64,000 nucleotides of DNA from NCBI GenBank assembly GCA_964410165.1, contig CAYPFT010000001.1, positions 38,341 to 102,340 on the forward strand, written 5' to 3'. Position 1 is the stretch's first letter, and every line of letters starts with the position of its first letter. A program made the translations under genes and the position numbers. The notes beneath the pieces were generated by a model, which saw nothing but the letters and a program-made list of their open reading frames with translations, made no database searches and was not told the origin of the DNA. This DNA comes from an uncultured Candidatus Saccharibacteria bacterium (GTDB lineage Bacteria > Patescibacteriota > Minisyncoccia > Phycocordibacterales > CAIJYI01). This document shows positions 2,686 to 47,503 of the stretch, piece after piece.

Positions 2686-3489
2686 ATGAGTAAGCGAACA
2701 GTAATTGTGAGCGGCGCAAGCCGCGGAGTTGGTGCTGAGATTGCCAAGCTTTTGGGAATGTCGGACTGGAATGTGGTCATTTTTGGTAAAACCGATATGC
2801 CGCATCGGATACTTCCGGGTACGATACATTCGGTCGCGGCTGAAATAAAAGCCGCCGGCGGGAGCGTTCTTGCCCTTAAAGTGGACGTGCGTTTTGAAGA
2901 CCAAGTAAGAAATGCGGTAGAGGAGGTCGTTAAGACTTTCGGCGGAATAGACGCTCTCATCAACAATGCGAGTGCGCTTCCTTTTGACGGGTCGGAAAAA
3001 CAGCTTCAGTTGGTGTACGATGTCATCGTGAATGGCACGCGTTTTTGTACGGAGGCGTGCCTGCCATACCTGCAAAAATCTGACAGTCCGCATGTCATCA
3101 ACATCGCCCCGCCGCTTCCGATGGCAGAACACTGGATTGAAAAATACGGGACGTACGCGAAAGCGAAACGCACCGTAAGCAAATATACGGATGTACTGGC
3201 AGAGCTCTACCCGAACATATCTTTTTCCGCGGTGTGGTTCATGAAGATGCTTCTGACTTTGGCCACTATTTTCGGCGTTTTTAAGAGTCGGGAAAAAGCA
3301 GAGAAACATACTCGAAACCCGGTAATAGCGGCGGATTCGGTAAAGTTGTTGCTGGACAACGGGCGGAATGACAAAATATTTTGGACGGACGAAGAAGTCC
3401 TTCAAAAATTGGGCGGCGTAACTGATTTTAGCCGCTACTTAAACCCCGGTTCCAAAGAAGAAGATTTGATGGACGATGTGTTTGTCTAA
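2686..3489 (+). CDS. Short-chain dehydrogenase/reductase (SDR) family oxidoreductase
   Basis: N-terminal VIVSGASRGVGAEIAKLL glycine-rich NAD(P)-binding motif, 267 aa. RBS GAGAGGTGA before the ATG. Confidence 0.8.
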   Translation: MSKRTVIVSGASRGVGAEIAKLLGMSDWNVVIFGKTDMPHRILPGTIHSVAAEIKAAGGSVLALKVDVRFEDQVRNAVEEVVKTFGGIDALINNASALPFDGSEKQLQLVYDVIVNGTRFCTEACLPYLQKSDSPHVINIAPPLPMAEHWIEKYGTYAKAKRTVSKYTDVLAELYPNISFSAVWFMKMLLTLATIFGVFKSREKAEKHTRNPVIAADSVKLLLDNGRNDKIFWTDEEVLQKLGGVTDFSRYLNPGSKEEDLMDDVFV

Positions 3490-3498
3490 TGAGTAAGT

Positions 3499-3669
3499 TA
3501 CCTTACGCACGATGGGAAAGATTTGGTCGGTGAGTCCGCCCTTTTGGCGGTCTCTCCGCCAAATCTTCCGCTTCCGACGCTCTATTTTGGCGGTTCCACC
3601 GCCAAGAGGCGGAGAAACCGACCAAAATTCTACGCCGAAACCGTACGGTATCACAATCATGCGTAAGGT
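3499..3669 (+). mobile_element. Family-1 MITE, copy A (~171 bp, TIR ...cttacgcac / gtgcgtaag...)
   Basis: The termini taccttacgcacgatgggaaagatttggtcggtgagtcc and ggagaaaccgaccaaaattctacgccgaaaccgtacggtatcacaatcatgcgtaaggt are shared with the copies at 24838-25063, 33308-33535 and 38280-38405. Confidence 0.7.
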
Positions 3670-3686
3670 GAGTGAGTAAAGTAAAT

Positions 3687-3722
3687 AAGGGCGCGATGTT
3701 TTCCATCGCGCCCTTTGTTTTG
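3687..3722. terminator. Bidirectional rho-independent terminator between the SDR gene and ETF-QO
   Basis: Hairpin aagggcgcgatg-ttttc-catcgcgccctt followed by tgtttt; the other strand also has an A/T run. Confidence 0.55.
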
Positions 3723-3729
3723 CTCCCTT

Positions 3730-5385
3730 TTACATATCCGTATAATTTGGGCCACTGCCGCCTTCCGGCGCAACCCATGTGATATTTGAGAACGGGTCCT
3801 TGATATCGCAGGTTTTGCAATGGACGCAGTTTGCGGCGTTGATTTGAAACCGCTTCGCGCCGTTTTCGTCCGTAATGATTTCATACACTCCGGCGGGACA
3901 GTATCGTACGGCCGGTTCTTGGTAGAGCTGCAAGTTGAGTTCAATCGGAACGCCGGGATGGCGTAAATGCAAATGCACCGGCTGATCCGGTTCATGTACT
4001 ATATTTGCCCGATAGACCGAAGCCATTTTTCCGAAACTTATTTTTCCGTCCGGCTCGGGGTACTCTATCTTCCGAGATAGTTTTGCGAGCTTGAGCCAAG
4101 CATGGTCGGAAACTCGATTTCTAAGCGTGACAGATAATTTTCCTCGAAAAATATTCTGCTCGAGGAAAATCCACATCGCTCCGAGAAAAGTGCCGAACTT
4201 TGCGAGTGCGGGACTCCAGTTCCGAGATTGATGCAGTTCTTCATATACCCAAGAATTGCGGTATCTCTCGTCCATATCGGGCGTTTTTCTTTGCGTTAGT
4301 ATAGTGTCAAATATCGCTTCCGCCGCAAGCATTCCGGTTTTCATCGCGGTGTGGTTTCCTTTGATTTTTGCTCCATTCAAAAATCCGGCATCATCCCCGG
4401 CAAGCACTCCTCCGGGGAAAGACAGTTTCGGTACGGATTGAAATCCGCCCTTTATGATGGCGCGCGCTCCATACGATATACATTCTCCGCCTTCCAAATA
4501 TTCTCTGATTTTCGGATGCTCTTTCCATCGTTGAAACTCCATGTACGGGTCAAGGTATGGATTTTCATAATCAAGCGCCGTGATAAAGCCGAGCGACACC
4601 TTGTTGTCTTCAAAGTGATAAAGAAAGCCGCCTCCTTCGGTGTGATTGTCGAGCGGCCAGCCGAGAGTGTGAAGGACGAATCCGGGTTTGTGTTTTTGCG
4701 AATCAATGCGCCACACTTCTTTTATCCCGATGCCATAGTGCTGCGGGTCTGAATCTTTTTGCAATCCAAACTTTTCTATCAGCTGTTTGCCGAGATGCCC
4801 GCGGCAACCTTCGGAAAAAATGGTGAATTTGGCTCGTATTTCCACACCCGGCTGGTAATCGCTTTTCGGTTTCCCGTCTTTTCCGACTCCCATGTCTCCG
4901 GTAAGTACGCCTATGACTTCGCCCGTTTCACCATACAATATTTCCGCGGCGGCGAATCCTGGGAAAATTTCCACGCCCATCGCTTCGGCTTGTTCGCCAA
5001 GCCATCGGCACAGTTGCCCCAAGCTGATGACATAATTCCCTTCATTCCGCATAGTTTTCGGAATGAGGGAATGCGGAATTTTTACACCCCTCCTCTCACC
5101 GGAAAAAAAATGCAATTCTTCTTCCGTAAACGGCACATGAAGCGGTGCACCCATTTCGCGCCAGTCCGGGAAGAGCTCGTTCAAAGCTCTCGGTTCAAAC
5201 ACGGCGCCGGAAATAATATGCGCTCCAACGTATGCGCCTTTTTCAAGAACGCATACGGCGAGTTCTGTTCCGGTTTCCGCCGCGAGCTGTTTTAAGCGGC
5301 ACGCGGCGGAAAGTCCGGATGGTCCGGCGCCGACAATGACAACATCAAAGTCCATCACTTCGCGTTCCGCATAATTCATATCCAT
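3730..5385 (-). CDS. Electron-transfer-flavoprotein:quinone oxidoreductase / FixC-FixX-like flavoprotein with a C-terminal 4Fe-4S ferredoxin domain
   Basis: 551 aa. N-terminal FAD motif DVVIVGAGPSGLSAA. C-terminal CVHCKTCDIKDP ferredoxin-type cysteine motif. Lies adjacent to etfAB. Confidence 0.8.
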   Translation of the reverse strand: MDMNYAEREVMDFDVVIVGAGPSGLSAACRLKQLAAETGTELAVCVLEKGAYVGAHIISGAVFEPRALNELFPDWREMGAPLHVPFTEEELHFFSGERRGVKIPHSLIPKTMRNEGNYVISLGQLCRWLGEQAEAMGVEIFPGFAAAEILYGETGEVIGVLTGDMGVGKDGKPKSDYQPGVEIRAKFTIFSEGCRGHLGKQLIEKFGLQKDSDPQHYGIGIKEVWRIDSQKHKPGFVLHTLGWPLDNHTEGGGFLYHFEDNKVSLGFITALDYENPYLDPYMEFQRWKEHPKIREYLEGGECISYGARAIIKGGFQSVPKLSFPGGVLAGDDAGFLNGAKIKGNHTAMKTGMLAAEAIFDTILTQRKTPDMDERYRNSWVYEELHQSRNWSPALAKFGTFLGAMWIFLEQNIFRGKLSVTLRNRVSDHAWLKLAKLSRKIEYPEPDGKISFGKMASVYRANIVHEPDQPVHLHLRHPGVPIELNLQLYQEPAVRYCPAGVYEIITDENGAKRFQINAANCVHCKTCDIKDPFSNITWVAPEGGSGPNYTDM

Positions 5386-5388
5386 AAT

Positions 5389-6345
5389 TTACCTCCTCTC
5401 ATCAAGAGCGTTTCGCATGGCGGAGATGACCTCAAAGAGATCCCCGACGAATCCGATATCCGCGATTTCAAATATCGCGGCTTTCGGGTCTTTGTTTACG
5501 GCAATAATCGTACCGGCATCTTTTATGCCTGCACAATGCTGGGGCGCTCCGGAAATCCCGAAAGCGATGTAGATTTGCGGAGCGATGGTTTTCCCCGATT
5601 GTCCGACTTGGCAGTCATTCGGTATGAAGCCCAAATCTACCGCAACGCGCGATGCTCCGACGGCGGCTCCAAGCTTCTCCGCCAATTGGAAGAGAAGCTT
5701 GAAATTTTCTTTACTGCCGACCCCGGCTCCGCCTGAGACGACAATGCGCGCCGATTGAAGTTCCGGTCTTCCGCTCGCTTCGCTTTTTTCGAGCGAGAGG
5801 AAACGAGTGTGATTCGGTATCGTTGAAACGCGCTCAAGCATGAGTATCTTTGCATCGCCGGTTCGCGCGACTTCTTTGAAAGATGCCATTCGAACCGTTC
5901 CGCACACATACGGCGCACAAACTTCGGTTGTTACAATGCAATTTTCCGCATATGCCGGATTTTCAAACACTCTCGAATCCACCACGCGCATGATGTTGCT
6001 CACTTGCGGGACGCCGAGAAGCGCCGCCACTCGCGGCAGAAGATCCTTCCCGAAAGAAGTTCCGGGAGCGAAGATGTGGCTATAGTTAAGCGCAAGAAAT
6101 ACGGAAACGATTTCCGGCGCAAAAATATTTGCCACAGGATGGGCATGGGCATTGTCTCTGATTACAAAAACCGATTCCGCGCATTCAAGCATCGCGGCTT
6201 GTTTTCCGAGAGAGTCTGCGTTTTCAGGAGTGGCAAATACCGCAATGCCGACTGTTTCCGCCGCTTCATGGGCGCAGGCGACCGTTCTTGCCGTACTTCC
6301 GTTAAGCGTTATGCCGTCATGTTCGGCGATTACAAAAGCTTTCAT
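5389..6345 (-). CDS. etfA: Electron transfer flavoprotein alpha subunit
   Basis: 318 aa, MKAFVIAEH..., with FAD-binding C-terminal region (SGAPQHCAGIKD...). Lies between etfB and ETF-QO. Confidence 0.85.
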   Translation of the reverse strand: MKAFVIAEHDGITLNGSTARTVACAHEAAETVGIAVFATPENADSLGKQAAMLECAESVFVIRDNAHAHPVANIFAPEIVSVFLALNYSHIFAPGTSFGKDLLPRVAALLGVPQVSNIMRVVDSRVFENPAYAENCIVTTEVCAPYVCGTVRMASFKEVARTGDAKILMLERVSTIPNHTRFLSLEKSEASGRPELQSARIVVSGGAGVGSKENFKLLFQLAEKLGAAVGASRVAVDLGFIPNDCQVGQSGKTIAPQIYIAFGISGAPQHCAGIKDAGTIIAVNKDPKAAIFEIADIGFVGDLFEVISAMRNALDERR

Positions 6346-7115
6346 AAGAGTACCCCTCGTTCTGTAAGTAATGAAATAAATTCATCAATGCTTTCGGCAC
6401 GAATGCCTTTGGGGCGCACAGGCGGAGAGCTTACTCGAAGAATTTTTGTCATCGGCGACATGTCTACTCCCAAAATTTCTGGAGAAAGCGTTTCAATCGG
6501 TTTCTTTTTCGCTTTCATAATATCGGGAAGTTTTGCCCGGCGCGGTTCATTGAGGCGTAGATCAACCGAGATTACCGCCGGCAAATCTACCGAAAGGGTT
6601 TCAATCCCCCCATCAACCTCCCTTATCGCCGTTGTTCTTTCTCCGTCAATCGTGATTTTTGAAACCGATGTCGCTTGCGGAAAGCCAAGCAGAGCGGCAA
6701 GCATTGCCGGCACTTGTCCGGCATCGTCATCGGTCGCTTGTCTACCCATGAGAACAAGACCAGGAGATTCCTTTTTAATGAGAGACGCGAATATCCGCGC
6801 CGCGCAAAATGGCTCTCGGCATTCGTTCGTTACGACATGAATCGCGCGATCGGCGCCGATGGCAAATGCCGTGCGCAATACATCTTCCGCGACCTTGTCT
6901 CCGATCGTTACGGCGATCACTTCGACAACCATTCCATTTATCAATCCGGACTCTCTCATGCGAATCGCTTCCTCAAGAGCAACCTCATCGAAAGGGTTCA
7001 TCACCATCTTTACTCCGTCGGTTACTACGCCGGATCCGTCCGGGCGTATTTGAATTGTCAATGCGGGGTCAATGACCCGTTTGACGCCAATGAGAATTTT
7101 CATTTTTTCGTTCAT
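6342..7115 (-). CDS. etfB: Electron transfer flavoprotein beta subunit
   Basis: MNEKMKILIGVKRVIDPALTIQIRPDGSG... The start at 7115 was chosen because GTGAGGTGA lies 7 nt upstream. Overlaps the etfA start by 4 nt. Confidence 0.85.
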   Translation of the reverse strand: MNEKMKILIGVKRVIDPALTIQIRPDGSGVVTDGVKMVMNPFDEVALEEAIRMRESGLINGMVVEVIAVTIGDKVAEDVLRTAFAIGADRAIHVVTNECREPFCAARIFASLIKKESPGLVLMGRQATDDDAGQVPAMLAALLGFPQATSVSKITIDGERTTAIREVDGGIETLSVDLPAVISVDLRLNEPRRAKLPDIMKAKKKPIETLSPEILGVDMSPMTKILRVSSPPVRPKGIRAESIDEFISLLTERGVLL

Positions 7116-7304
7116 TTTTTTCACCTCACTTATTTTGTTAATTTCAATGAAACAAGATGTTTCTGTACTTATCAGTAGCAATAAAGTATGAATATGTCAA
7201 TAATTGACTACAATGCGATAAAGTAGTAGCCTCGGGAAAGATATTGACAAAGAGATTAATTGCTTTGCAATTTTTCACAACCAGCAGAAAGAGGTATAGA
7301 GAGA

Positions 7305-8653
7305 TGAACAAAACAAGATTTGACAAACGCATTGTTTTCGCAGGTGCGTGTCGTACCGCCGGTGCCAGCGTTCTTACCGGCATTGGCGGTGGCGGATTTT
7401 GGAGTAACAGCGCGCATGAACTCATGACGACTTGTGTACTTGAAACTCTGCGCCGCACCAATGTTCCGATCGGGGATGTTGACGGCGTTGTAATGGGAAC
7501 TTGCATGCATGACCCGCGCGTGCTCAATGTCGGGCGCATTGTTGCTGTACTTGCGGGACTTCCCGAAGAAATTCGCGAATCGTTTTTCCTCGGCGAGTAC
7601 CTGAGCGTGGAAACCGTATCAAACAGGTCGCTTGCATCGCATGTGGTTGGCGATACGGTGAGTTTCAACTGCGGTTCGGGACTTGTTTCAATCATTAACG
7701 CCGTTCGTCGCCTTCTTTTGGGAGAAGGAAAGGCATACATTGCCGGTGGTGGAGAAAGCATGTCGCATGCTCCGCTTCAAATACCGCGGACGGCAAAAGG
7801 TGAAAAGCCGTACAGCCAGCGGGACTTTGTCGTCAAGAACGGGGAAAATCACGACCTCTTTGTCGCGATGGAAAACGGCGTGACGGTTACGGACGCATTG
7901 CTTCACGGTTTACGCGATCCATTTACCGGATTGCATTACGGAGCGACGGCGGATCTCGCCGCGGTAAAGTATGGCATCACACGTCGGGAACAAGACAAAG
8001 CGGCGGTGATTTCCCACTCTCGCGCGCGGAAAGCTCGCGATGCCGGGTACTTTGCTCCGCAGATTGTTCCCATACGGACTCGCGATGCGGAAGCGCGGAT
8101 AATTGATTTGGACGAAGGAATTCGGACCGACCTTACCGAAGGAGTCCTCGCTTCCCTCAAACCGTACTTCACCACGGACGGCACGGTAACGGCGGCGACG
8201 AGCGCTCTCGTTTCCGACGGTGCGGCGAGCATGCTTGTCATGACGCTTGAAGAAGCGCTTCATAGCGGCATCGCTCCGGACGCTGAAATCCTTGACTATG
8301 AGTTCGTGGCGGGCGACCCATCGTATATGGGCGTTGTCCCCATTCTTGCCATTCAGAAAATTTACGAACGGTGGGGATTTGGCAAAGATACCGAGAATCT
8401 CATGCATATCAATAATGCCGCTTTTGAAGCAACCAACTTGTCCGTCCAAAAGCTCGCAGAAGTTCCGAAGAATCGTTGGAATTGGTGGGGGGATGCTATC
8501 TCCGGCTTCGGTCATGCGGTGGGCGGAAGCGGCGCGATGCGCACGGTAGAGGGAGCGTACATGCTCAAATTCCTTCCGGAATACGACTACGTACTCGTTT
8601 CTTTCTGCGTCGGCGGCGGACAGGCGGTTGCACTGCTTATCGGGCGCGTCTAG
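7305..8653 (+). CDS. Thiolase (acetyl-CoA C-acetyl/acyltransferase)
   Basis: N-terminal nucleophile motif SFNCGSGL. C-terminal GFGHAVGGSGAM and CVGGGQAV thiolase signatures. Start at MNKTRFDKR with AGAAAGAGGTA upstream. Confidence 0.8.
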
Positions 8654-8788
8654 TACAAAAATGCTTTGCAACAGAGCAGGCGAGACCCAAACTCTTGACT
8701 GTCTTTCAACAACAGAGAAAGGTGAAAAAAGATGAAATTAAAACAGAAAGCAGGGATCTTTGTCAATCAACAAATAAAGAGGCACATT

Positions 8789-10015
8789 ATGAACAATCCG
8801 ATAAAAAAGGTCGTCATCATTGGCGGCGGAGCCATGGGCGGCGGTTTCGCGGCTCGCATTGCCCGAGACGCGGGCAATCAAGGAGTAAGAACCGTTATAA
8901 TTGAACACCCGGACCGGGTAGATGCGGCGAGGCAATCGTTTTACGAACGCATCCATCGCTGGTTCAAGCTTGGGCACATTCCATTCGCACGAGTGGAGGA
9001 ACTCGTATCCTACGTCACATTCACCGGAAATCCGGCGGATGCGGCGGATGCAGATTTCTTTCTGGAGTGCGTCCCTGAAAACCTCGAACTCAAACAAGAG
9101 ATTTTCAGAACATACGATGCGATACTGCGTCCCGGCGTCATTATGGCGTCAAATACATCGTCGCGTCTCATCGGGGATATTGCGCAAGCCACCAACCGTC
9201 CGGAGCTTGTCGTCGGATTCCACGGCATGCAGCCGCCGACGAGCAGACCGCTCCTTGAAGTCATTCGTTCATCAATGACCTCCGATGAAACGGTGGAGAC
9301 GGTAACAAACTTCGCGGAAGGTCCGCTCAAGATGGTAACGATTCTCTCGAAAGACAGTCCGCTTGCCATCGTGAATCGCCAGCTCCTTGTCATTTTGGAT
9401 GAAGTCTACCACTGGCTTGAGCATTCCAATGTGAATACACTTGACATAGATGAGGCAAACAAGGACTGGCCGGCAGGATTTGTCACTCTCTCCAATTTCC
9501 TTGGTCTTGATGTAGTCTTGGAAGTCGGGAAAAACGGCAAAGTGGCGTATCCGGATCGTGTCGTCATGGGCGATCTCATTCCCGAGATGGTAAAACACGG
9601 ACTGGTCGGAAAGAAAAACGGCGAGGCGTGCGAGGGCTTCTATGCTCTTGATCCGGAAGAAGGTTCAGCGTTTGAAAATTTACGCAACGAACTCTTTTCG
9701 GATTTTCAAATTGCACGCCGGCATGACATTACCGGAGCGATGGTATATGAATACGCCATGCTCCGCGGGATGAATGAAGCGGCACTCATCCTTGAAGAAG
9801 GGGTGGCGAGTAAGAGTGACATTGAACGCGGGACCGTCGTCGGACTTGGCATCAAAAACGAAGGACTTTTGCATGCCGCGGATGCGTACGGCATTAATCG
9901 TCTGGTCGTTGCCCTCACGAAGCTTGAAAGCAAACACGGCATGCGATTCCATCCTGCGAAAATTCTCGTTGATATGACAAAGAGTGACGGGACATTCTTC
10001 GGGGATGAGTTGTAA
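8789..10015 (+). CDS. 3-hydroxyacyl-CoA dehydrogenase (NAD-binding, with C-terminal dimerisation domains)
   Basis: KKVVIIGGGAMGGGFAARIA Rossmann motif and a 3HCDH-like body. Start at MNNPIKK with AAAGAGG upstream. Confidence 0.8.
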   Translation: MNNPIKKVVIIGGGAMGGGFAARIARDAGNQGVRTVIIEHPDRVDAARQSFYERIHRWFKLGHIPFARVEELVSYVTFTGNPADAADADFFLECVPENLELKQEIFRTYDAILRPGVIMASNTSSRLIGDIAQATNRPELVVGFHGMQPPTSRPLLEVIRSSMTSDETVETVTNFAEGPLKMVTILSKDSPLAIVNRQLLVILDEVYHWLEHSNVNTLDIDEANKDWPAGFVTLSNFLGLDVVLEVGKNGKVAYPDRVVMGDLIPEMVKHGLVGKKNGEACEGFYALDPEEGSAFENLRNELFSDFQIARRHDITGAMVYEYAMLRGMNEAALILEEGVASKSDIERGTVVGLGIKNEGLLHAADAYGINRLVVALTKLESKHGMRFHPAKILVDMTKSDGTFFGDEL

Positions 10016-10037
10016 ACTCGTTCACTGTGCAATAGTT

Positions 10038-10072
10038 ACGGAGAAAGTCAAGATTGACTTTCTCCGTTTTTT
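10038..10072 (+). terminator. Rho-independent terminator after the 3-hydroxyacyl-CoA dehydrogenase gene
   Basis: acggagaaagtcaa-ga-ttgactttctccgt followed by tttttt. Confidence 0.6.
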
Positions 10073-10133
10073 GTATATAAAGGTTTTAGGCCTGTCAATG
10101 ACAGAATTACCACTTTATAGATGAGGTAACAAC

Positions 10134-12362
10134 ATGTACCCTGAAATTAAAACAAAAGTAGTCAAAAACCTTGGCGTTTTGACTTTGGAACCGGAAAATA
10201 ATGCATTGTCCGTTGACTTTCTCAAGGCGCTCGCCGGAGAATACGTCGAAATGGCGAACACTTCGGGTACGGATGCCACCATGCTCATGATGAAACGGAT
10301 GATTGTCGGGATGGATATCAAGGCAATTCTCGCGTTCATGGAATCCCGCGATCGCGAGCATGTTGACGAGTTCCTTTCGTTTGTCCATCGCGACTTAATC
10401 ACGGCATTCGCCGAGTCCGGGAAGCCCGTGATTGCGGCTTTGCAGGGATCGCATATCCTTGGCGGCGGACTTGAGCTCGTTCTGCCATGCCACATCATCG
10501 CCGATAAAGCGACAAGCATCGGGCTGGTGGAAAGCGGAATCGGGCTTTTCCCCGGATATATGGGAATTTTCTCAATGATGAAGAGAATCGGGGTGCGGAA
10601 AACGCTTGAGCATGTCCTTGCCGGAGATTTCATTCCGGCTCACCGCGCCTTTGAAGAGGGGATCATTGATTGCATCGCGGACACGGATTTTTCAAATACT
10701 GTGTTCGCATTTGCCGCCGATGTTTTGGAGGGAAGATTTGTGAAGCAATCGCACATTCTTATCCCCGAAGAAGCGAACTCTCTCTCGGAAGAAGAGATTT
10801 TGCGGCTCGCAAACGGAAAACCGGCGGAACTCGTGCAGGCGATAATTGATGCCGTTCGCGCTATCGCTTCAAGACCTACTTCAGTCGAGGCGTCTCTTGC
10901 GGAACGCGAGCGATTCTTGGATGTTTTCTTTTCTCGCTATGCCGGAGAATTTGTTTTGGCGTTCCTTGAAGGAAAGCGCAAACCAAAGTGGGATAATGTC
11001 ATCGGCGGGAATAAGAATATCGCCGCTTCCGTTGAAGTATTGCCAAGCGTTGTAGCGGAAATTCCGCCGTGGGAAAAAGAAGAGTTTAGCGATGCCCGCA
11101 CAGCGGTACGCGAATTTGTGAAAGAGAGAATTCTCGCGAACGAGAAGGATCTCCAAACAGACACTGCCGCGATTACGGAAATACTTCAGCATATGCATGA
11201 GTGTGGCGCGACCGGCTCGAAATTTCCCGAAGACAAATTGACGGAAATCCAACGCGCCCTACGAAAGGCGATGGAAACGAACGAGCCGTTGGTCAAAAAA
11301 ATCGTTTCTGAAATGTTTGACCTCGGGTTCTTCAGTGTCCAGTTTGCCGAACAGTACGGTGGCATGGGAATGGGCATGGTTGGAGCATGCATGGTGGCGC
11401 AAGAGATTGCCTACGGAGATCCGGCAATCGGCATCATCGTCGGCGCACATGCGTGTCTCTTTTCGGGACCGATTGCCGCTTACGGAACAGAAGACCAAAA
11501 GGAACGGTATCTGGTTCCCGGCATGCGCGGAGAATTCTTGGGCGGGCTTGCATCTACCGAGCCGCATGGGGGTTCAAATCCGGCGGGGAAACAGGCGCTT
11601 GCGCTGAAAGTTTCCGGCGGATGGGAAATAACGGGCAGATACTCGTTTATCTCAAACGGCAGAACGGCGCGGTATCTGCTCGTCTATGCGCAGACAGATA
11701 AGGACGCGCTTGAAGATGAGGCGCTCGCCAAGAGGACCATGGGAGCATTCATCGTGGATACGAAGAGCCCAGGATTTCTCGCCTACCCCGACGAAGACAA
11801 AGGGGGGCTCCTTGCTTCGTGTACCAACGGATTGTCGCTTGACTCAGTGTTCGTTCCCGAAAAAGATGTGCTTTCAATCGGGGTTGGAAATTCGGAAGGA
11901 TACAAGACTATGATGGAAACTTTCAACTGCGGCCGGATTATGCTTGCCGCCGCCAATGTCGGCGGGATACAAGCCGGTATTGATGAAGTGCTGAAATTCG
12001 CGACAACGAGAATGATTGGCGGCGGGCGGAAAATGTATGAGTCCGAATCCATTCTTGAAGAAATCGGAAACATGCGAGAACGGTTGGAAGTGCTGAAGAG
12101 AGCTGTGTATGCGACGGCATGGGAAGCCGACCGCGGCATGGACATACGCGTAAGCGCCGCCGCCGTGAAGACACTCGGTACTGATATGACACAGGATGTG
12201 CTCAAACTGGGTAGACAGCTCATGGGCGGTGCCGGTTTTATGAAGAGCAGAATGTGGAAGATGAACATTGACTTCGCCGTGTGGGACACATTTGAAGGTC
12301 CGAAGAAAAGAATCAACACCTTCATCGGCGTGCAGACGGTAATAGATTATACGCGCAGGTAA
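10134..12362 (+). CDS. Fusion protein: enoyl-CoA hydratase/isomerase (crotonase) N-terminal domain plus acyl-CoA dehydrogenase C-terminal domain
   Basis: 742 aa. N-terminal half has crotonase-fold motifs (ALQGSHILGGGLELVLPCHIIADKATSIGLVESGIGLFPGYMG). C-terminal half is ACAD-like (MVAQEIAYGDP..., GGLASTEPHGGSNPAG, ITGRYSFISNG, QLMGGAGFM). Confidence 0.75.
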   Translation: MYPEIKTKVVKNLGVLTLEPENNALSVDFLKALAGEYVEMANTSGTDATMLMMKRMIVGMDIKAILAFMESRDREHVDEFLSFVHRDLITAFAESGKPVIAALQGSHILGGGLELVLPCHIIADKATSIGLVESGIGLFPGYMGIFSMMKRIGVRKTLEHVLAGDFIPAHRAFEEGIIDCIADTDFSNTVFAFAADVLEGRFVKQSHILIPEEANSLSEEEILRLANGKPAELVQAIIDAVRAIASRPTSVEASLAERERFLDVFFSRYAGEFVLAFLEGKRKPKWDNVIGGNKNIAASVEVLPSVVAEIPPWEKEEFSDARTAVREFVKERILANEKDLQTDTAAITEILQHMHECGATGSKFPEDKLTEIQRALRKAMETNEPLVKKIVSEMFDLGFFSVQFAEQYGGMGMGMVGACMVAQEIAYGDPAIGIIVGAHACLFSGPIAAYGTEDQKERYLVPGMRGEFLGGLASTEPHGGSNPAGKQALALKVSGGWEITGRYSFISNGRTARYLLVYAQTDKDALEDEALAKRTMGAFIVDTKSPGFLAYPDEDKGGLLASCTNGLSLDSVFVPEKDVLSIGVGNSEGYKTMMETFNCGRIMLAAANVGGIQAGIDEVLKFATTRMIGGGRKMYESESILEEIGNMRERLEVLKRAVYATAWEADRGMDIRVSAAAVKTLGTDMTQDVLKLGRQLMGGAGFMKSRMWKMNIDFAVWDTFEGPKKRINTFIGVQTVIDYTRR

Positions 12363-12379
12363 CTCGCAACAACTAAACA

Positions 12380-12447
12380 GCCGTCGATCTTCGGGTCGAC
12401 GGCATTTTATTAAAAAAGCCGCCTCCGAATTGATCGGAAGCGGCTTG
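12380..12447. terminator. Back-to-back convergent terminators (plus-strand hairpin 12380-12410, minus-strand hairpin 12411-12447)
   Basis: ccgtcgatcttcgggtcgacgg + attttatt serves the plus strand. agccgcctccgaattgatcggaagcggct preceded by aaaaaa on the plus strand (T-run on the minus strand) serves the ligase gene. Confidence 0.55.
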
Positions 12448-12457
12448 CCTGCTTGTT

Positions 12458-14326
12458 TTACTCCGCTTCTGCGAGTACTGCGGTGCGCTCTTCCATGGCT
12501 TCCATGCGCAGCAGGTAGCGCAGAGTACTTTCTTTCCGTGATTTCGGAATTTCTGTTTTGAACCGTATCTCTTTGGGTATGTTATACGGCGCCATGTGGG
12601 CGGCTACCCAGTCCTTGAGTTCTTCTTTCAGCGCTTCGGTTTGGGTGTATCCGTCTTTCAACACCACAAACGCCCACACTTCCGGCTCAGAACTTTCATG
12701 AACATCTTTGGGCGGAATTCCGACGACCGATACCTCGGCGACGGCTTTGTGCAGTTTGAGCTTGGCTTCAATGTCGTCCGGGTATTTTTTGTTTTTGCCG
12801 ACGATGACATCATCTTTTCTTCCCGTACAATAATGATTGCCGTCTTCATCCTCGTAGCCGAGGTCCGCCGTTTGAATCTTGCCGTCTTTGGTGAGGACTT
12901 TTGCCGTCGCTTCGGGGTTGTTCCAATAGCCGTCCATGACTGACGGAGTTCTAACCCACATCCATCCGATTTCTCCTTGAGCCGTTTCCCTAAAGTGTCC
13001 ACCCTCTTCTTTCATGTATCGTATACTTATGCCGGGAAGAGGCGAACCAATGGATCCGGGCTTGTTTCTTCCCGGCTTGTTGCAAGTAACCACCGGGCCG
13101 CCTTCCGTGAAGCCGTATCCTCCAAAAAGAACCGCTCTCCCGACCCACGCATTGAATCGCTCTTCAATTGCGGGTGCAAGCGCGGATCCTCCGGAGATGC
13201 AATACTTCAGATTCTCCAAGCCCTCTTGGCACCTTTCTGTTTCTGACAGCGCCTCATATTGCGCCGGAACGCCGACGAACACGGTCGCTTTTGATTTCAC
13301 CAAACCGTTTCGTATGGCGGCAATATCTCGCGGATCTATTTCTATGACGATATGGCTTCCGGAAATGAGCGGAGCATTGATCGCTACAGTATCCGGAAAA
13401 GCGTGGTCAGGCGGCAGAGAGAGGAAAAATGTTTCCACGCCGCGTTTGATGCTGAAATGCTCAAGACACCGGTTGGCATTGTCCGCAATCTTTTTATGCG
13501 AGAACATGACGCCTTTTTGCCCCCCGCTCGTTCCGCCGGTAGACATGATGTGTCCGAGAGAGGAAGGAAGCGGACGGCGTTCGTCGAGTGCATCTATTTC
13601 TTCTTGTGATACATATCCATGTATAATCTTCCCGAACGAGTGGAAATTTCCGGCATCTTCGCGCAAGGCCTTTCGCGCTTTTTCAAAGAGCGTTACTTTG
13701 CGTTCAAGCCGGGCTATTTTTTTTTCCGCTTTGGCAAGAGACAGGCCGATAACGTCCGCATAGGCTTTTTCTTCTTCGGCTATTTCCAGATCCCGCCCGA
13801 ACTTCAAAGCGCTTACGGCGCAAAAAAGCGAAGAAACGGAGGTATGCAGAAATTCGGGCGCTGTGCCGGAAAAACACCATTCTGTGCCCGAAAGCATTTC
13901 GGGGATGTTCGCGACAATGGGAACAGAGCGCAAAGGGTTGCTCCACTTGAGAGGTTGTTCCGAAAACGCTTCCTTAACCGTCGGATAGAACAGGTCAAGC
14001 GTCGCGATATTCGCTGCGCCGTACTCAAGTATTTTCTCGGCGAGCTCAAGTTTCGGGGCTTCGGGAGAATATGGTGCCGGAACCGCGCCGGCATAAAAGT
14101 ATCCGAGATAGGCGATAATCCATTCTCTGCAGGGCGGCGCGACGATCATTACTCTGTCGCCGGGGCGTATGCCGAGGCGGATCAGATAAACCGCAAAGCG
14201 TTTGGCATACAATTGCATGTGTTCGTAGTCGGTCGTTTTTCCCATGAAAGTAACGCAAGGGGCTTTTGGTTTTCGTGCCACAGCATCGTCAAATCCGTCC
14301 AAAATCGTTTCATAATTAAAGTTCAT
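12458..14326 (-). CDS. AMP-dependent acyl-CoA synthetase/ligase with a coiled-coil insertion in the N-terminal domain
   Basis: AMP-binding motif MSTGGTSGGQKGVMFSH. C-terminal ligase body (GYGFTEGG..., DLGYEDEDGNHYCTGRKDD). Start at MNFNYE with GGAGG 6 nt upstream. Confidence 0.75.
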   Translation of the reverse strand: MNFNYETILDGFDDAVARKPKAPCVTFMGKTTDYEHMQLYAKRFAVYLIRLGIRPGDRVMIVAPPCREWIIAYLGYFYAGAVPAPYSPEAPKLELAEKILEYGAANIATLDLFYPTVKEAFSEQPLKWSNPLRSVPIVANIPEMLSGTEWCFSGTAPEFLHTSVSSLFCAVSALKFGRDLEIAEEEKAYADVIGLSLAKAEKKIARLERKVTLFEKARKALREDAGNFHSFGKIIHGYVSQEEIDALDERRPLPSSLGHIMSTGGTSGGQKGVMFSHKKIADNANRCLEHFSIKRGVETFFLSLPPDHAFPDTVAINAPLISGSHIVIEIDPRDIAAIRNGLVKSKATVFVGVPAQYEALSETERCQEGLENLKYCISGGSALAPAIEERFNAWVGRAVLFGGYGFTEGGPVVTCNKPGRNKPGSIGSPLPGISIRYMKEEGGHFRETAQGEIGWMWVRTPSVMDGYWNNPEATAKVLTKDGKIQTADLGYEDEDGNHYCTGRKDDVIVGKNKKYPDDIEAKLKLHKAVAEVSVVGIPPKDVHESSEPEVWAFVVLKDGYTQTEALKEELKDWVAAHMAPYNIPKEIRFKTEIPKSRKESTLRYLLRMEAMEERTAVLAEAE

Positions 14327-14544
14327 AACAAACCTCCGTATGTGTCTGTCAAGGTGAAAAATATGCAATGATTATTGCATGAACCTGCTCTATCTTTACT
14401 ACAAAATCTACTTTTTTGCAAGTTGTTTCGGGGCGCCTTGACTCCATTCGTTCTTTATGGAAGTATTGAAGATGGCAGAGCTTTTTTTACGCTCAAGATG
14501 CTTTATTGACATTTTTACAACTTTTTGACCAAAGGAGGCCAAAA

Positions 14545-22806: not shown

Positions 22807-23631
22807 TTACAGAGAACAGACAACGACACGCCATCGGTCGAACTGGTCTTTCCAAAACTCCGTGCGGAAAGGGGAGAAGGCGGAGAGTTTTTTAATCTCT
22901 TCTTTTTGCCATGAGTCAAATTCAATGAACAGTTTGCCTCCATGGGCGAGGAATTGCGGGGCTTCAGCAAGGAGTTTTTTTATGTAAAACAATCCGTCGT
23001 CTTCGGCAAACAGCGCACCGTCCGGTTCGTAGTTGAGGACGGATTTTTGGACGGCTTCAATTTTCGCGCGGGAGATATAGGGCGGGTTCGCAAAGATAAA
23101 GTTATATTTTTTTGGTGAGATATTCTTGAAAACGTCTGATGTAAAAACCCGCGCACGTTTATGGTCAATATTGTTGAGAGCTAGATTTTTTTCTATTTGC
23201 GCTACAAAGGCAGGTTCTTTTTCTCCGAAGTCTACGGTCGCTGTCAAGAGGTGTTTTAAGAGAGCGATACCAATACAGCCGGAGCCGGAAAAAATGTCGA
23301 GAATTCGGAGGCTTCTCCACCTCTTTAGAGGGGAGTCCGCCAGCTGGCGGAGAGAGGGGGTGGTTTCTTTCACCCCACCCGGCCTCCCCTCTGAAGAGGG
23401 GAGGAGGACGTCGACTACGGCTTTTTCTACCCACCACTCTGTTTCTGTCCGGGGAATAAGCGGGCGGGAAGAGAGGTCGATTTTGCACCCTAAAAACTCA
23501 AAAAAACCGATAAGGTAATCTATCGGTTCTCCTGATTCAAGGCACTTCACGCCTTCGAAGAATTCGGGGGTTTTTTGTCCGCCGTACTTTTCGCGAAGCA
23601 ACCATTCTGTTTCTTTGGCGTAATTATTCAA
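22807..23631 (-). CDS. prmC: Release-factor glutamine methyltransferase PrmC/HemK, containing a ~32-codon in-frame repeat insertion
   Basis: NPPY motif (FIFANPPYI), SAM motif ILDIFSGSGCIGIAL. The segment LLPSSEGRPGGVKETTPSLRQLADSPLKRWRS is encoded by DNA shared with the MITE at 43891-44234. Confidence 0.75.
   Translation of the reverse strand: MNNYAKETEWLLREKYGGQKTPEFFEGVKCLESGEPIDYLIGFFEFLGCKIDLSSRPLIPRTETEWWVEKAVVDVLLPSSEGRPGGVKETTPSLRQLADSPLKRWRSLRILDIFSGSGCIGIALLKHLLTATVDFGEKEPAFVAQIEKNLALNNIDHKRARVFTSDVFKNISPKKYNFIFANPPYISRAKIEAVQKSVLNYEPDGALFAEDDGLFYIKKLLAEAPQFLAHGGKLFIEFDSWQKEEIKKLSAFSPFRTEFWKDQFDRWRVVVCSL
23325..23415. repeat. Family-2 MITE-derived fragment inserted in frame inside prmC
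   Basis: A 31-bp block ggggagtccgccagctggcggagagaggggg is identical to 44144-44174. Its neighbour cccctctgaagaggggaggaggacgtcg matches 44030-44056 with 3 mismatches. Confidence 0.65.
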
Positions 23632-24762: not shown

Positions 24763-24837
24763 TTGAAAATAAATATGCCTCATTCCGGGCAGGTGAAAAC
24801 ATACTAACAAATCCGGAGTCTTTTGGCAAATAAATAA

Positions 24838-25063
24838 CTCACCTTACGCACGACTGGAAAGATTTGGTCGGTGAGTCCACCACAAGAGTACTTCCATTTT
24901 CTAATCGCTTCGCTCAAGAAAATTAGGTCGCTCCTCTTGGAGGTCTCACCGCCAAATCTTTGACTTTCAGCGTTCGATTTTGGCGGTTTCACCTCCAAGA
25001 GGAGGAGAAACCGACCAAAATTTATGCCGAAGCCGTATGTTGTCGCAACTGTGCGTAAGTCCT
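24838..25063 (+). mobile_element. Family-1 MITE, copy B (~226 bp)
   Basis: tcaccttacgcacgactggaaagatttggtcggtgagtcc ... ggagaaaccgaccaaaatttatgccgaagccgtatgttgtcgcaactgtgcgtaagtcct. Lies between infC and a hypothetical gene. Confidence 0.7.
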
Positions 25064-25110
25064 AATAAAAAAGCCAGCACCTTTCATGGTGTGGCTTTTG
25101 CGATATGGCG

Positions 25111-32349: not shown

Positions 32350-32367
32350 TTGAGGTATAATAAAAAA

Positions 32368-33285
32368 ATGAAAAAAGTTTTCTCACGGAGTAAAATATTT
32401 TTTGCCGCACTTTCTTTTTTTATTCTCCCGTTTCTTTTTTCTTCGGATGTTAGCTCCGAGCCAATTTTTACCTGTGCTTCCGTGCGCGGTACTTGTATGG
32501 AGGCGAGCAAGTGTGCCGTGCCGCCGAATAGCTTGTTTGGCGGCACTGAATGCGACAAAAGCGGCACCACCATGACTTGTTGTTCAGCCCCTAAATCTGC
32601 GCCAACCACTGCGCCAACGGCACCCACCTGCATTTCGCAGGGAAAGGAATGTCTACTGGAGGCCGCTTGCGAGCCGGGTTCAATTGTGCCGGCCGGGGAT
32701 TGTTTTTCGTACCAAAAATGTTGCACTCCCGGTGTCGTTTCAGGAATCCCCCCACCTCCCACGCCGACAATTACTTGTGTCGGATCATGCGACCCTGGCT
32801 CTTGTCAAAGCGGAACGGTGCCGGCAAGCGGTACTTGTGGCATTGGTGAATCATGCTGCGCTCCCGCCCCTGCATCAGCAACGCTTCCGTCAACAACACC
32901 ACCCCCAACAACCGGCGCTTCTTCGGGGTCAACGGCCGACAGCGGAGGCAGCGGTCTCGTGCCGTGCGGGTATCAGGAGGGGCTAGAAGCCGCTGAAAAC
33001 TGCCAGTTCCAACACTTTTTGATACTTGCCAAAAACGTCATAAATTTCCTCCTCTTTACCATCGCCGTACCGATTGCCGCCATTTCTTTCGCGTGGGCGG
33101 GGTGGCTGTACCTCTCCGCCGCCGGCAATGAGAGCAAGGTGCAGGAAGCACACAGGATATTCGGGTATGTCGTACTCGGCCTCTGCATTGCTCTCGCGGC
33201 ATGGCTTATCGTGAATGCCATCATCGTCGGGCTCGGCCTCTTCCCGAAGTACAATCCTCTCACCGGCGGGACTTTTGGAGGATGA
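32368..33285 (+). CDS. Secreted cysteine-rich repeat protein with a C-terminal VirB2/TrbC-like (T4SS pilin-like) two-helix membrane domain
   Basis: Signal peptide, three Cys-rich repeats each ending in CC.P, Pro/Thr linker. C-terminus FLLFTIAVPIAAISFAWAGWLYLSAAGNESKVQEAHRIFGYVVLGLCIALAAWLIVNAIIVGLG. TATAAT ends 6 nt before the ATG. Confidence 0.5.
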   Translation: MKKVFSRSKIFFAALSFFILPFLFSSDVSSEPIFTCASVRGTCMEASKCAVPPNSLFGGTECDKSGTTMTCCSAPKSAPTTAPTAPTCISQGKECLLEAACEPGSIVPAGDCFSYQKCCTPGVVSGIPPPPTPTITCVGSCDPGSCQSGTVPASGTCGIGESCCAPAPASATLPSTTPPPTTGASSGSTADSGGSGLVPCGYQEGLEAAENCQFQHFLILAKNVINFLLFTIAVPIAAISFAWAGWLYLSAAGNESKVQEAHRIFGYVVLGLCIALAAWLIVNAIIVGLGLFPKYNPLTGGTFGG

Positions 33286-33307: not shown

Positions 33308-33535
33308 TAGGACTTACGCACTGTTGCGACAGCGTACGGTTTCGGCGAGGAATTTTGGTCGGTTTCTCCGCCTCTTGGCGGTGGAACCGCCAAAATTCAG
33401 CGCTGAAATCGAAGATTTGGCGGAGAGACCGCCAAAAGGGCGCGACCTGATTTTCTTGAGCGAAGCGATTAGAAAATGGAAGTACCCGTGTGGCAGACTC
33501 ACCGACCAAATCTTTCCCCAGTGCGTAAGTCCTAT
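33308..33535 (-). mobile_element. Family-1 MITE, copy C (~228 bp, inverted relative to copies A and B), ending 9 nt before the tatD start
   Basis: taggacttacgcactgttgcgacagcgtacggtttcggcgaggaattttggtcggtttctcc ... gactcaccgaccaaatctttccccagtgcgtaagtcctat. Confidence 0.7.
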
Positions 33536-33543
33536 TGAATATC

Positions 33544-34365
33544 ATGAACCCTCCTCTTTATTTTGACGCTCACTCCCACATAAACGACCCTCGTTTTGAT
33601 ACCGACATCGGCGAAGTCCTTTCTCGCATGAAAGAATCGGGAGTGTGGTCGCTTGTGGTGGGGACGGAAAAAAATCTCTCATCGCGTGCGGTAGAGCTTG
33701 CGAACGAACATGATGGCATTTTCGCCTCCGTCGGACTCCATCCGACGGATGACGCGCATGAGCAATTTGATGAAGCCTTTTACCGGACGCTTGCCGAAGA
33801 TCCGGAAACTGTTGCGATAGGCGAGTGCGGACTGGATTATTTCCGTCTCGGCGAAGAAGAGAGAAAAAAAGAAGAAGCAAAGCAGAAAACCGTGTTTGAA
33901 AAACAGCTTGAGCTTGCCGTTTCACTCGATAAACCGCTGATGATCCATTGCCGCAACGCCCATCAAGACATGCTCGGTATCCTCGGCTCAAAGAAGAAAG
34001 AACACGGCGAAAAACTCCGCGGAAACATCCACTTTTTTTCGGAAGGTCCGGAAACCGCAAAAAAGTATTTTGACCTTGATTTCACGATCTCATTCACGGG
34101 TGTTATCACCTTCGCGAGAGAGTATGATGAAACCATCCGCTACGCTCCACTTGACCTCATCCTCTCCGAAACCGATTGCCCGTATGTTGCCCCGGCTCCG
34201 TATCGCGGCAAACGCAATGAACCCGCTTATGTTGTTGAGGTGGTCAAAAAGATTACTGAGATCCGCGGCGAAGATTTCGAAACCGTCCGCGAGCAGTTGG
34301 TCAAAAATGCCCTGCGGGTGTTCGGGATTCGCGAAACAAAATTTGACAAGAATACTAGTATGTGA
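33544..34365 (+). CDS. tatD: TatD-family metal-dependent hydrolase (DNase)
   Basis: FDAHSHIN...GLHP...GECGLDY...HCR...FSG TatD motifs. Confidence 0.85.
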   Translation: MNPPLYFDAHSHINDPRFDTDIGEVLSRMKESGVWSLVVGTEKNLSSRAVELANEHDGIFASVGLHPTDDAHEQFDEAFYRTLAEDPETVAIGECGLDYFRLGEEERKKEEAKQKTVFEKQLELAVSLDKPLMIHCRNAHQDMLGILGSKKKEHGEKLRGNIHFFSEGPETAKKYFDLDFTISFTGVITFAREYDETIRYAPLDLILSETDCPYVAPAPYRGKRNEPAYVVEVVKKITEIRGEDFETVREQLVKNALRVFGIRETKFDKNTSM

Positions 34366-37047: not shown

Positions 37048-37065
37048 CCGTCTTTCGTCCCCGGT

Positions 37066-37093
37066 ACTTATACTAATCCCTTATACTTAACAT
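37066..37093 (+). promoter_or_regulatory. 28-nt motif acttatactaatcccttatacttaacat immediately 5' of the rpsC ATG (identical copy before fusA)
   Basis: Exact 28/28 identity with 41205-41232. Contains two TATACT hexamers; the second ends 6 nt before the ATG. Confidence 0.5.
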
Positions 37094-37787: not shown

Positions 37788-38210
37788 ATGCTCCTCTTTC
37801 CAAGAAAAGTAAAACATCGAAAATGGCAGACAAGCCGCAAAAACCCGAATAAGCCTCGCGTGGCTACCCGGGGCGTTACGGTTGCTTTCGGTGCGTATGG
37901 GCTGAAAGCGCAGAGCGTAGGCCGCATCCGGTCAAACCAGATCGAAGCGGCGAGGAAAACGCTCGTACGCACTATTTCCAAGACGGGAAAAGCGTGGATT
38001 CGCATTTTTACAGACCGGCCGGTAACTCAAAAAGCGGCGGAAGTGGGGATGGGAAAAGGGAAAGGAGATCCGGTGGGGTACTGCGTAGAAGTTTTTCCGG
38101 GGCGGGTGCTTTTTGAGGTTGACGGTGTTTCGGAAGCTGTAGCGAAAAATGCGCTTCGAAAAGCCGGCGCCAAACTTCCGGTAAAGACGAGAATCGTGAG
38201 CCGAATATAG
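37788..38210 (+). CDS. rplP: 50S ribosomal protein L16
   Basis: MLLFPRKVKHRKWQTSRKNPNKPRVATRG... Start chosen at 37788 within the longer ORF. Confidence 0.9.
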   Translation: MLLFPRKVKHRKWQTSRKNPNKPRVATRGVTVAFGAYGLKAQSVGRIRSNQIEAARKTLVRTISKTGKAWIRIFTDRPVTQKAAEVGMGKGKGDPVGYCVEVFPGRVLFEVDGVSEAVAKNALRKAGAKLPVKTRIVSRI

Positions 38211-38279
38211 CGCAATGCCGAGCAGATTGACGCAGAGCAAAAAATGCGCTAAAGTCATGGTTGCGGCGTAATGTATCAA

Positions 38280-38405
38280 ATAGGACTTACGCACTTGGAT
38301 GAGATTCGAGGCGAAACAAGGGTTTTTACGGAGATGTACTAACAGTACATTGACGGGAAAACCCGATGTTTCAACGACGAAGATCGCCAAATGCGTAAGT
38401 CCTAT
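38280..38405. mobile_element. Family-1 MITE, copy D (126-bp minimal copy) between rplP and rpmC inside the ribosomal operon
   Basis: ataggacttacgcac ... gtgcgtaagtcctat termini identical to the other copies; the internal sequence is unrelated. Confidence 0.65.
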
Positions 38406-38419
38406 CAAAATCAAAATCA

Positions 38420-40930: not shown

Positions 40931-41204
40931 TTTCTTCTCCTAAAAATTGTGATTGAATTTAGTATGTACCGCTGAAAACAGTTTATCACAATACAACACA
41001 TTTGTCAACTCTTTCCACGTCACCAAAAATAGGGTAAGATAAATACATCTTTTAATGACCGCTACCGGGTCTTTTTATTTAGACAAGCGAGGAAGGAATA
41101 GGAGCTTGCTCATATTCCAGCCGAGTGCCGTCTAAATATGAGAATTTATTGCTCATATTTAATAAACGATGAGTAGAGAAAAAAGGGCGTTCGTTTTCCC
41201 TTAT

Positions 41205-41232
41205 ACTTATACTAATCCCTTATACTTAACAT
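41205..41232 (+). promoter_or_regulatory. Second copy of the 28-nt motif acttatactaatcccttatacttaacat, 1 nt before the fusA ATG
   Basis: Exact copy of 37066-37093. Confidence 0.5.
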
Positions 41233-43890: not shown

Positions 43891-44234
43891 TGACAAGTAA
43901 GTTCTCACACCCCACCCCAATCCTCCCTTACAGGGACTGTACACCTTTTGGACTTTTTGTTTCCCCGCCGGCTGGCGGGTCACAAAAATCCTCAAAAGGT
44001 CTTGCGGAACGGGTCCCTGCCCATTCCTCACCCTCTAAAGAGGGGAGGAGGCACGACGGTTGGCGTCCTTACCGCATGGGCACTTCCAATTTTATACTCC
44101 TTTCAGTCGTTAAAATTTAGGTCGCTCCCCCTTTTCAAAGGGGGAGTCCGCCAGCTGGCGGAGAGAGGGGGTTCGTGTGTAATATCGCTCTGTACAGTAA
44201 AGATATTTTTGGGGTGTGAGGACTTACTTTGACA
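43891..44234. mobile_element. Family-2 MITE (~344 bp) with ~25-bp terminal inverted repeats ttgacaagtaagttctcacacccc / ggggtgtgaggacttactttgacaa
   Basis: Perfect inner TIR ctcacacccca/tggggtgtgag. Internal palindromes ccgccggctggcggg and ccgccagctggcgg. Shares a 31-bp block with the prmC insert. Confidence 0.65.
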
Positions 44235-47229: not shown

Positions 47230-47503
47230 CCCTATAGCTAATTCTAGCATATGCCACTTAGCCGGATTAATTTGGTTGATAATCAACTCGGATTGCAGGT
47301 AATGTGCCTCGTACACCGGCTTCTTCTCTCCTCAAAACGAACGATTTTAAGCTCGCAACACGATGATTTCGCATGTATTTTTTTTATACACGCGAATTGT
47401 TTCAAAAAAACGAAAAAAATGCTTACGCTACCGAACTAAAACGACTACGCTATCAACCAAATTAATCCGGCTATTACGCATATGCTAGAATTAGCTATAG
47501 GGG
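47230..47503. mobile_element. Family-3 MITE (~274 bp) with ~50-bp terminal inverted repeats
   Basis: ccctatagctaattctagcatatgc ... gcatatgctagaattagctataggg (25/25 perfect), extended by ccggattaatttggttgata / tatcaaccaaattaatccgg. Confidence 0.7.

Follow-up and report, generated by a model that had tools for sequence, protein, structure and literature searches.

Probable trans-mobilized type II MITEs, with two unrelated interiors on shared ends, in a Parcubacteria (CPR) genome

The DNA analyzed here, a single stretch of 64,000 nucleotides referred to below as the window, carries an L16 that is 91% identical to the L16 of MAGs named 'Parcubacteria group bacterium', with Parcubacteria/Paceibacterota as the next matches; its host is therefore a CPR (Parcubacteria) bacterium. 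Four short elements, A to D, are distributed along the window (Table 1), and the genes that flank them specify an SDR, ETF-QO, infC, a pilin-like protein, tatD, rplP and rpmC. The interval 3730-14368 holds a complete-looking fatty-acid β-oxidation set (ETF-QO, ETF α and β, thiolase, 3-hydroxyacyl-CoA dehydrogenase, acyl-CoA synthetase and an enoyl-CoA hydratase/acyl-CoA dehydrogenase fusion), which one would not expect of Parcubacteria. A low-GC (40-44%) integrated element (52000-62500) adjoins the tmRNA gene (62096-62491, minus strand); its cargo comprises a large serine integrase (60509-62200), a primase zinc-finger protein, a DNA methyltransferase and large proteins of unknown type, and a LOOT RNA lies within it at 56173-56288. 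Repeats of other kinds are also present. The palindromic elements at 47230-47502 and 2503-2611, with arms of 52 nt and 47 nt and with CCGGATTAA(T/C)TT in both, probably constitute a second MITE-like family (L001, a Logan contig assembled from short reads of this organism, stops within the 47230-47502 repeat), and an identical 32-mer hairpin, GGGGAGTCCGCCAGCTGGCGGAGAGAGGGGGT, is found at 23330-23361 and at 44141-44172.

Table 1. Positions of the four elements, their parts, their flanking duplications and their surroundings in the window.
Feature	Position	Strand	Description
Copy A	3496-3673	+	hairpin-pair MITE, short form, 178 bp; ends AGTTACCTTACGCAC / ATGCGTAAGGTGAGT (variant-1 tips)
Copy B	24837-25064	+	hairpin-pair MITE, long form, 228 bp; ends chimeric
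Copy C	33308-33534	-	hairpin-pair MITE, long form, 227 bp, inverted; TAGGACTTACGCAC at both ends
Copy D	38281-38404	+	124-bp palindromic MITE; ends TAGGACTTACGCA(C/T)
Hairpin 1 of A	3520-3565	+	outer stem GATTTGGTCGG/CCGCCAAATC, 5x5 internal loop, inner stem CCGCC/GGCGG
Hairpin 2 of A	3584-3628	+	inverted variant of hairpin 1 (ATTTTGGCGG...CCGACCAAAAT)
B/C-specific insert	B 24880-24934; C 33439-33492
TSD of A, GAGTA	3491-3495 and 3674-3678	.	perfect 5-bp direct repeat
TSD of C, TTGAA	33303-33307 and 33535-33539	.	perfect 5-bp direct repeat
TSD of D, TCAAA	38276-38280 and 38405-38409	.	perfect 5-bp direct repeat
Context of copy A	SDR gene 2686-3489; bidirectional terminator 3687-3715		copy lies between the SDR stop codon and the terminator
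Context of copy B	infC promoter-like site 24829-24801	-	copy lies upstream of the site, 7 nt from the -35 box
Context of copy C	pilin-like gene 32350-33285; tatD 33544-34365		copy lies between the two genes
Context of copy D	rplP 37788-38210; rpmC 38420-38626		copy lies between the two genes, in a ribosomal-protein operon

The limits of A to D were fixed base by base, and they fall within 1-3 nt of those of the original prediction, which had listed four copies at these places, with C inverted. All four copies are intergenic in a window of which ~15% is intergenic (p about 5e-4); they lie in either orientation to their neighbors, and these neighbors (SDR, infC, tatD, rpmC) are mutually unrelated. 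On its other side, copy B faces a terminator-like hairpin of the upstream gene, recognized by eye (the terminator scan gave no call). Copy D begins 25 nt downstream of a promoter-like TTGACG-N17-TAAAGT site (38227-38255). In the closest relative the same site stands 12 nt before the rpmC ATG, so that D would give a near-leaderless rpmC a leader of ~165 nt; this suggests that the host clade has, inside its ribosomal-protein operon, a promoter that leaves rpmC nearly without a leader. Promoter-like sites between rplP and rpmC of relatives, about 9-12 nt upstream of the rpmC ATG, are at L077:10440-10476 (TTGAC-N17-TAAAGT) and L090:1145-1182 (TTGACT, with a TATACA-like -10). Elsewhere in the window, a 36-nt module (TCCC..TACTTATACTAATCCCTTATACTTAACAT) recurs at 37058-37093, 41197-41232 and 62905-62940, the third copy being weaker. 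The module immediately abuts the ATG of rpsC and that of the EF-G gene, and from its sequence it looks like a promoter giving leaderless mRNAs.

What is common to all four copies is only a 9-nt core, CTTACGCAC/GTGCGTAAG. CTTACGCAC occurs six times in the 64-kb window (0.34 expected), each time at an end of one of the four copies, and the 13-mer AGGACTTACGCAC, with up to two mismatches allowed, is likewise found six times (0.83 expected); chance is excluded as the source of the repeats. Outside the core there are two variants of the tip, TAGGACTTACGCAC on C, D and the right end of B, and A(C/G)T(C/T)ACCTTACGCAC on A and the left end of B, whose outermost bases are unlike (TAGGA as opposed to ACTCAC). 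The termini (t)aggacttacgcac, which were thought at the outset to be shared by all four copies, thus reduce to the core, since A lacks aggacttacgcac and the left end of B, ACTCACCTTACGCAC, is of the ACTCACC type; the right end of B, GTGCGTAAGTCCTA, is of the TAGGAC type. The terminal inverted repeats extend over 14-15 nt, perfectly in C (14/14) and less so in D (13/14) and A (12/15); those of B match in the core only because its ends are chimeric. Two differing tip variants are unusual for elements under a single DDE transposase. The core CTTACGCAC is suggested to be the main recognition determinant, because two unrelated interiors use the same ends and because B has one tip of each kind. With one tip of each variant and no clean duplication at its flanks, copy B either arose by recombination between two elements or is simply old.

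Alignment of the termini and their flanks, the check that accompanied the original prediction, brings out perfect 5-bp direct repeats around A, C and D that had been missed there, and no clean one around B. The flanks of B are AAATA and ATAAA, and would match (as ATAAA) only with its left end moved 2 nt outward. An A-type copy on a metagenome contig (L062:621-802) has the perfect 5-bp repeat AATTA on both flanks, the flanking repeat of a D-type copy on the same contig (L062:13914-14037) matches at 4/5 positions, and a clean duplication is absent or ambiguous at B, L062:4603-4726, L061, L080 and L082. At such spacing in the window, flanks match at 5/5 positions by chance with a probability of 0.0018 per site (0.0097 if both pentamers are A/T-rich). 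Perfect 5-bp repeats at three or more of four sites correspond to p<4e-6, a somewhat optimistic value in that the limits were picked after inspection, although even when relaxed tenfold it stays well below the chance level. The sequence of the duplication varies from copy to copy, which points to a staggered cut at varied targets and not to site-specific or HUH-type insertion; flanking 5-bp repeats of variable sequence are not a known product of HUH transposases (IS200/IS605, RAYT).

The interiors fall into two unrelated kinds. That of A, B and C is common to the three, and the blocks gatttggtcggtgagtc, ggagaaaccgaccaaaat and gccaaatctt that had been claimed for the long copies are found in each of them. 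B and C are 85% identical overall, and both contain an extra ~54 nt that A lacks, which in B falls within hairpin 1. This insert may, to judge from its sequence, be an independent small repeat that the MITE has taken up. A 37-nt match to it (84% identity) lies upstream of nrdD on a related metagenome contig (L085:6085-6121), and AAATTTAGGTCGCTCC (44113-44128), beside the second copy of the 32-mer hairpin in the window, resembles it. The interior of D is 42-49% identical to those of the other copies, which is the background level. D had been described as sharing only its termini with the rest, which it does, at a length of 124 bp and not the 126 bp first given. A single 'Family 1' is accordingly right as to the shared ends and too simple as to what lies between them, there being two unrelated interiors (the hairpin pair and the D type) and two tip variants.

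The A/B/C interior is built of four ~21-nt motifs, (G/A)ATTT(T)GG(T)CGG-N5-CC(G/T)CC, in alternating orientation, which make up two nested hairpins. In each of these, an outer stem leads through a 5x5 internal loop to an inner stem of 5 bp, closed by a loop of 4-5 nt. The internal hairpins noted at the outset in the long copies are thereby given a definite form, two per copy. Each hairpin has an inner stem of CCGCC/GGCGG or of CCTCC/GGAGG, without mixtures, so that all 10 of the 10 hairpins in A, B, C, L061 and L062 are paired, and the state of one hairpin is independent of that of the other: in L061, hairpin 1 is of the G:C state and hairpin 2 of the T:A state. What is conserved is the local hairpins and not long cross-pairing. 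D forms one imperfect palindrome without the hairpin motifs of A, B and C. All the elements fold much more stably than shuffled controls: D folds as DNA with z = -11.0 and -10.5, and as RNA A folds with z = -9.3 and C with z = -9.8. The compensatory changes could stem from the usual co-evolution of the two ends with the transposase, from selection acting on a folded intermediate, or from repair processes in palindromes.

The elements have no recognizable coding capacity. None of 8 internal ORFs of the copies has a significant Pfam match. When the 121-aa internal ORF is run with HMMER against 1.84 billion representative proteins, the sole match is a 67-aa ORF, P0122, itself a translated copy, and a search of 5.8 billion proteins with a six-frame pseudo-protein of C and D returns a single match, P0001, which contains a translated D-type copy. 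The ORFs of 64-121 aa are artefacts, as the original prediction held, in that the protein searches recover only element-derived ORFs. A scan against Rfam finds no family at the gathering threshold, only generic hairpin models below it (miRNA precursors and twister-P3, the latter at 18-23 bits against a threshold of 39.9). A known RNA family is rejected on these sub-threshold generic hairpin matches, and an attC site, a retron and a group II intron are rejected on anatomy.

Two of the sites can be compared with their counterparts in other genomes. The rplP-rpmC spacer, which D occupies, measures 209 nt in the window and 5-105 nt in six relatives (53, 57, 105, 5 and 11 nt are the values listed). 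At the site of C, compared with the one syntenic relative L077, tatD abuts its upstream gene in the relative, and of the 258-nt gap in the window 232 nt are element plus duplication. Among the relatives compared, the C and D sites are, on this alignment of gene neighborhoods, filled only in the window's lineage. The relatives, which were reached via L16, have 81-91% protein identity and only about 75% DNA identity, and this is too distant for an exact empty site with a single pentamer to be read.

Beyond the window, an exact scan of 596 Gb of genomes with an 18-mer common to A, B and C yields chance matches only; the same 18-mer finds two real loci, L061 and L062, in the metagenome collection. 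Neither collection includes the source genome, and the genome-wide expansion put forward in the original prediction would be an extrapolation from the four copies in 64 kb. L061 has one A-type copy with a degenerate right end. On L062 (14.7 kb) an A-type copy with 83% identity to A is accompanied by two D-type copies, 97% (L062:4603-4726) and 88% identical to D; one D-type copy (L062:13914-14037) ends in TAGGGCTTGCGCGC / GCGCGCAGGCCATA, in which both ends show the same three A-to-G changes. Judged by its sequence, L062 is probably Parcubacteria as well: its peptidase shares 59% identity with one from a Parcubacteria MAG, and its tetranucleotide usage correlates with that of the window at 0.91. 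A REP-like repeat that L061 and L062 contain and that is absent from the window suggests that they come from a different organism. The M3 oligopeptidase of L062 (11412-13433) is closely matched in just a few similar contigs, the next-best matches being ~50% identical oligopeptidase A proteins of Gammaproteobacteria, a pattern that suggests a gain by horizontal transfer.

A profile search reaches further, to diverged D-like elements in the ribosomal-protein operons of two relatives, at L080:7605-7730 (upstream of rpsS) and L082:4381-4503 (after rplB), with the tip AGGACTT, differing interiors and no duplications. The D-like sub-terminal motifs GGATGAGAT / AGATCGCC are conserved and lie 90-92 nt apart, and in the D-like alignment 16 of the 47 stem pairs have changed on both sides. 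The superfamily must therefore be older and wider than its near-identical copies suggest. Another ~150 kb of related Parcubacteria DNA, found via L16 and the L062 peptidase, contains no close copies and only the two diverged D-like elements, which makes the expansion lineage-specific. Viral contigs, scanned with both end variants and two internal blocks, give chance matches or none, and the plasmid and phage collections give no match to the elements.

A MITE is defined as a sequence of <500 bp with terminal inverted repeats of ~4-30 bp, direct repeats around young copies and an intergenic location (PMC10969869). MITEs are non-coding, form stable stem-loops when transcribed and resemble ISs at the ends only; AT-richness is typical and not defining (PMC10969869). 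The four elements correspond to this description in length (124-228 bp), terminal repeats, duplication, dispersed intergenic copies and presence/absence among relatives, and the one feature in which they depart from it is AT-richness, their GC content being 45-53%. Their ends, duplications, multiple copies, absence at orthologous sites, lack of coding capacity and self-folding are direct observations, and the early assignment to non-autonomous elements agrees with the terminal repeats, the TSDs, the intergenic, non-coding character and the empty sites in relatives. Correia elements of Neisseria, RUP of S. pneumoniae and QMITE1/2 of Coxiella are prokaryotic examples of type II MITEs, and Correia and RUP duplicate TA. 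The duplication here is 5 bp and not TA, and the elements differ further from known MITEs in having two tip variants and two unrelated interiors on one 9-nt core, and in having a streamlined CPR/Parcubacteria genome as host. Inverted ends and a 5-bp duplication are also reminiscent of non-autonomous elements of the Tn3 family. Tn3-family ends are, however, ~38 bp long and start with GGGG, whereas the ends here are 14-15 nt long and start with TA or AC, and a Tn3-type transposase/resolvase partner is not seen. Among the papers examined, none names both MITEs and CPR/Patescibacteria, and the literature search found none with these end sequences.

TIGR arrays (TIGR-Tas) occur in CPR bacteria and phages (PMC12045711); each consists of 5-15 tandem units with two 8-12-nt repeats and variable 9-nt spacers, beside a Nop-domain tas gene (PMC12045711). 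Short alternating repeat blocks, hairpin potential and a CPR host give the elements a likeness to such arrays, from which they differ by eight 5-6-nt GC blocks, near-constant 4-5-nt loops, dispersed copies and housekeeping neighbors. A TIGR array is rejected: there is no tandem array, and the loops are near-constant between copies.

Three other explanations compete with, and are weaker than, the type II MITE reading. Short GC-rich intergenic hairpins, inverted pairs and compensatory stem changes all recall REP/REPIN-like palindromes, whose hairpins a RAYT-type Y1 (HUH) transposase would recognize and which it would spread in the form of single-stranded DNA. The exchange of CCGCC/GGCGG for CCTCC/GGAGG, independent in hairpins 1 and 2 with 10/10 hairpins paired, the both-sided changes of the D-like family (16/47 pairs) and the presence of a RAYT-like Y1_Tnp gene on the copy-bearing contig L061 speak for such an origin, which is nonetheless very improbable. 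Variable 5-bp flanking repeats are not known to be made by HUH transposases, a Y1_Tnp gene is not found in the window, and D has the same ends with none of the hairpin motifs. REPINs are not known to leave a target duplication and have a conserved GTAG/CGTC tag; the combination of no duplication, a conserved tag and a RAYT gene with the same repeats is not what is seen here. The RAYT-like gene of L061 (12383-13111, minus strand) lies in a locus (L061:12300-13296) with palindromic ACAAGGACTACCCTAGG repeats, a different repeat that does not occur in the window, and a link of this gene to the elements is rejected because the flanking repeat differs. One ACAAGGACTACCCTAGG-type repeat abuts a D-type MITE in L062 (4586-4600). 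A TA that precedes the conserved GGAC in C, D and the right end of B could instead be taken for the duplicated target of IS630/Tc1-mariner-type MITEs, which duplicate TA only, the element proper then being GGACTTACGCAC...GTGCGTAAGTCC. This is barely credible, because the identity of the C and D flanks runs 5 nt past the TA (TTGAA, TCAAA) and because A and L062:621-802 combine non-TA tips with the 5-bp repeats GAGTA and AATTA.

The elements might also be taken for a structured cis-acting or small RNA family, with the inverted ends as a closing stem and the copies arising by duplication or recruitment. Very stable folds (z = -9 to -11) and compensatory stem changes would be expected of such a family, and two of the copies are so placed that they would be transcribed: D, lying 25 nt downstream of a conserved promoter-like site, would be in the rpmC leader, and A is between a stop codon and a terminator. 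Target-site duplications, however, point to insertion and not to a resident RNA gene; the copies lie in both orientations beside unrelated neighbors (SDR, infC, tatD, rpmC), close relatives are without the element at the same sites, no Rfam match rises above noise, and the same ends enclose two unrelated interiors. An RNA family is thus decidedly unlikely.

That leaves the type II MITE reading: A to D are very probably non-autonomous elements of this type in a Parcubacteria (CPR) host, and a DDE-type transposase acting in trans would move them. The window ORFs, scanned with Pfam, NCBIfam and PHROGs, include no DDE or Y1 transposase, in agreement with the original prediction that the window contains no transposase gene. 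Searches of the window, of ~0.4 Mb of related loci and of viral, plasmid and phage collections turn up no transposase with these ends. The sole recombinase of the window is the large serine integrase of the integrated element beside the tmRNA gene, and it is not related to the inverted-repeat elements. The kind of transposase, its supply in trans and the present mobility of the elements are matters that we infer from the ends and flanks; these ends, with their 5-bp duplication, do not place the elements in an IS family and bear a weak resemblance to those of ISEcp1 (IS1380 family) or Tn3.

A scheme consistent with this reading would run as follows. A DDE-type transposase encoded elsewhere would bind the 14-15-nt terminal inverted repeats with the core CTTACGCAC and insert the element where it had cut A/T-rich intergenic DNA with a 5-bp stagger, whose repair would generate the 5-bp duplication. 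At least two unrelated interiors, the hairpin pair of A, B and C and the 124-bp palindrome of D, would ride on the same ends. Co-transcription with host genes would be a by-product, placing D in the rpmC leader and A in the 3' end of the SDR transcript, with B just upstream of the infC promoter.

It is unlikely that the folded form of the elements is under selection in this CPR lineage, beyond selfish insertion. Such selection would fit the observations that compensatory changes keep the internal hairpins and the terminal stem, that the length and the sub-terminal motifs of D-like elements are kept while the interior is replaced, and that D-like elements recur in ribosomal-protein operons of different Parcubacteria. 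If the fold were selected, an undescribed CPR transposase might act on an intermediate that is single-stranded and folded, or cruciform, or the elements might have been recruited as structured leaders of essential, otherwise near-leaderless operons.

The elements are real MITEs, an ordinary kind of element in an unusual host, and their interest comes from that host and from their positions beside essential genes. The general view of CPR/Patescibacteria is of streamlined genomes with little mobile DNA. Here four copies of one MITE superfamily and several other palindromic repeat families lie within 64 kb (and three copies of the superfamily within the 14.7 kb of L062), and transposon activity has shaped at least this Parcubacteria lineage. 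Insertions beside essential genes, in the rpmC leader and upstream of the infC promoter, could affect expression. Repeats of this kind break short-read assemblies and so bear on the quality of CPR genome bins, and the elements could serve as markers for finding the partner transposase.
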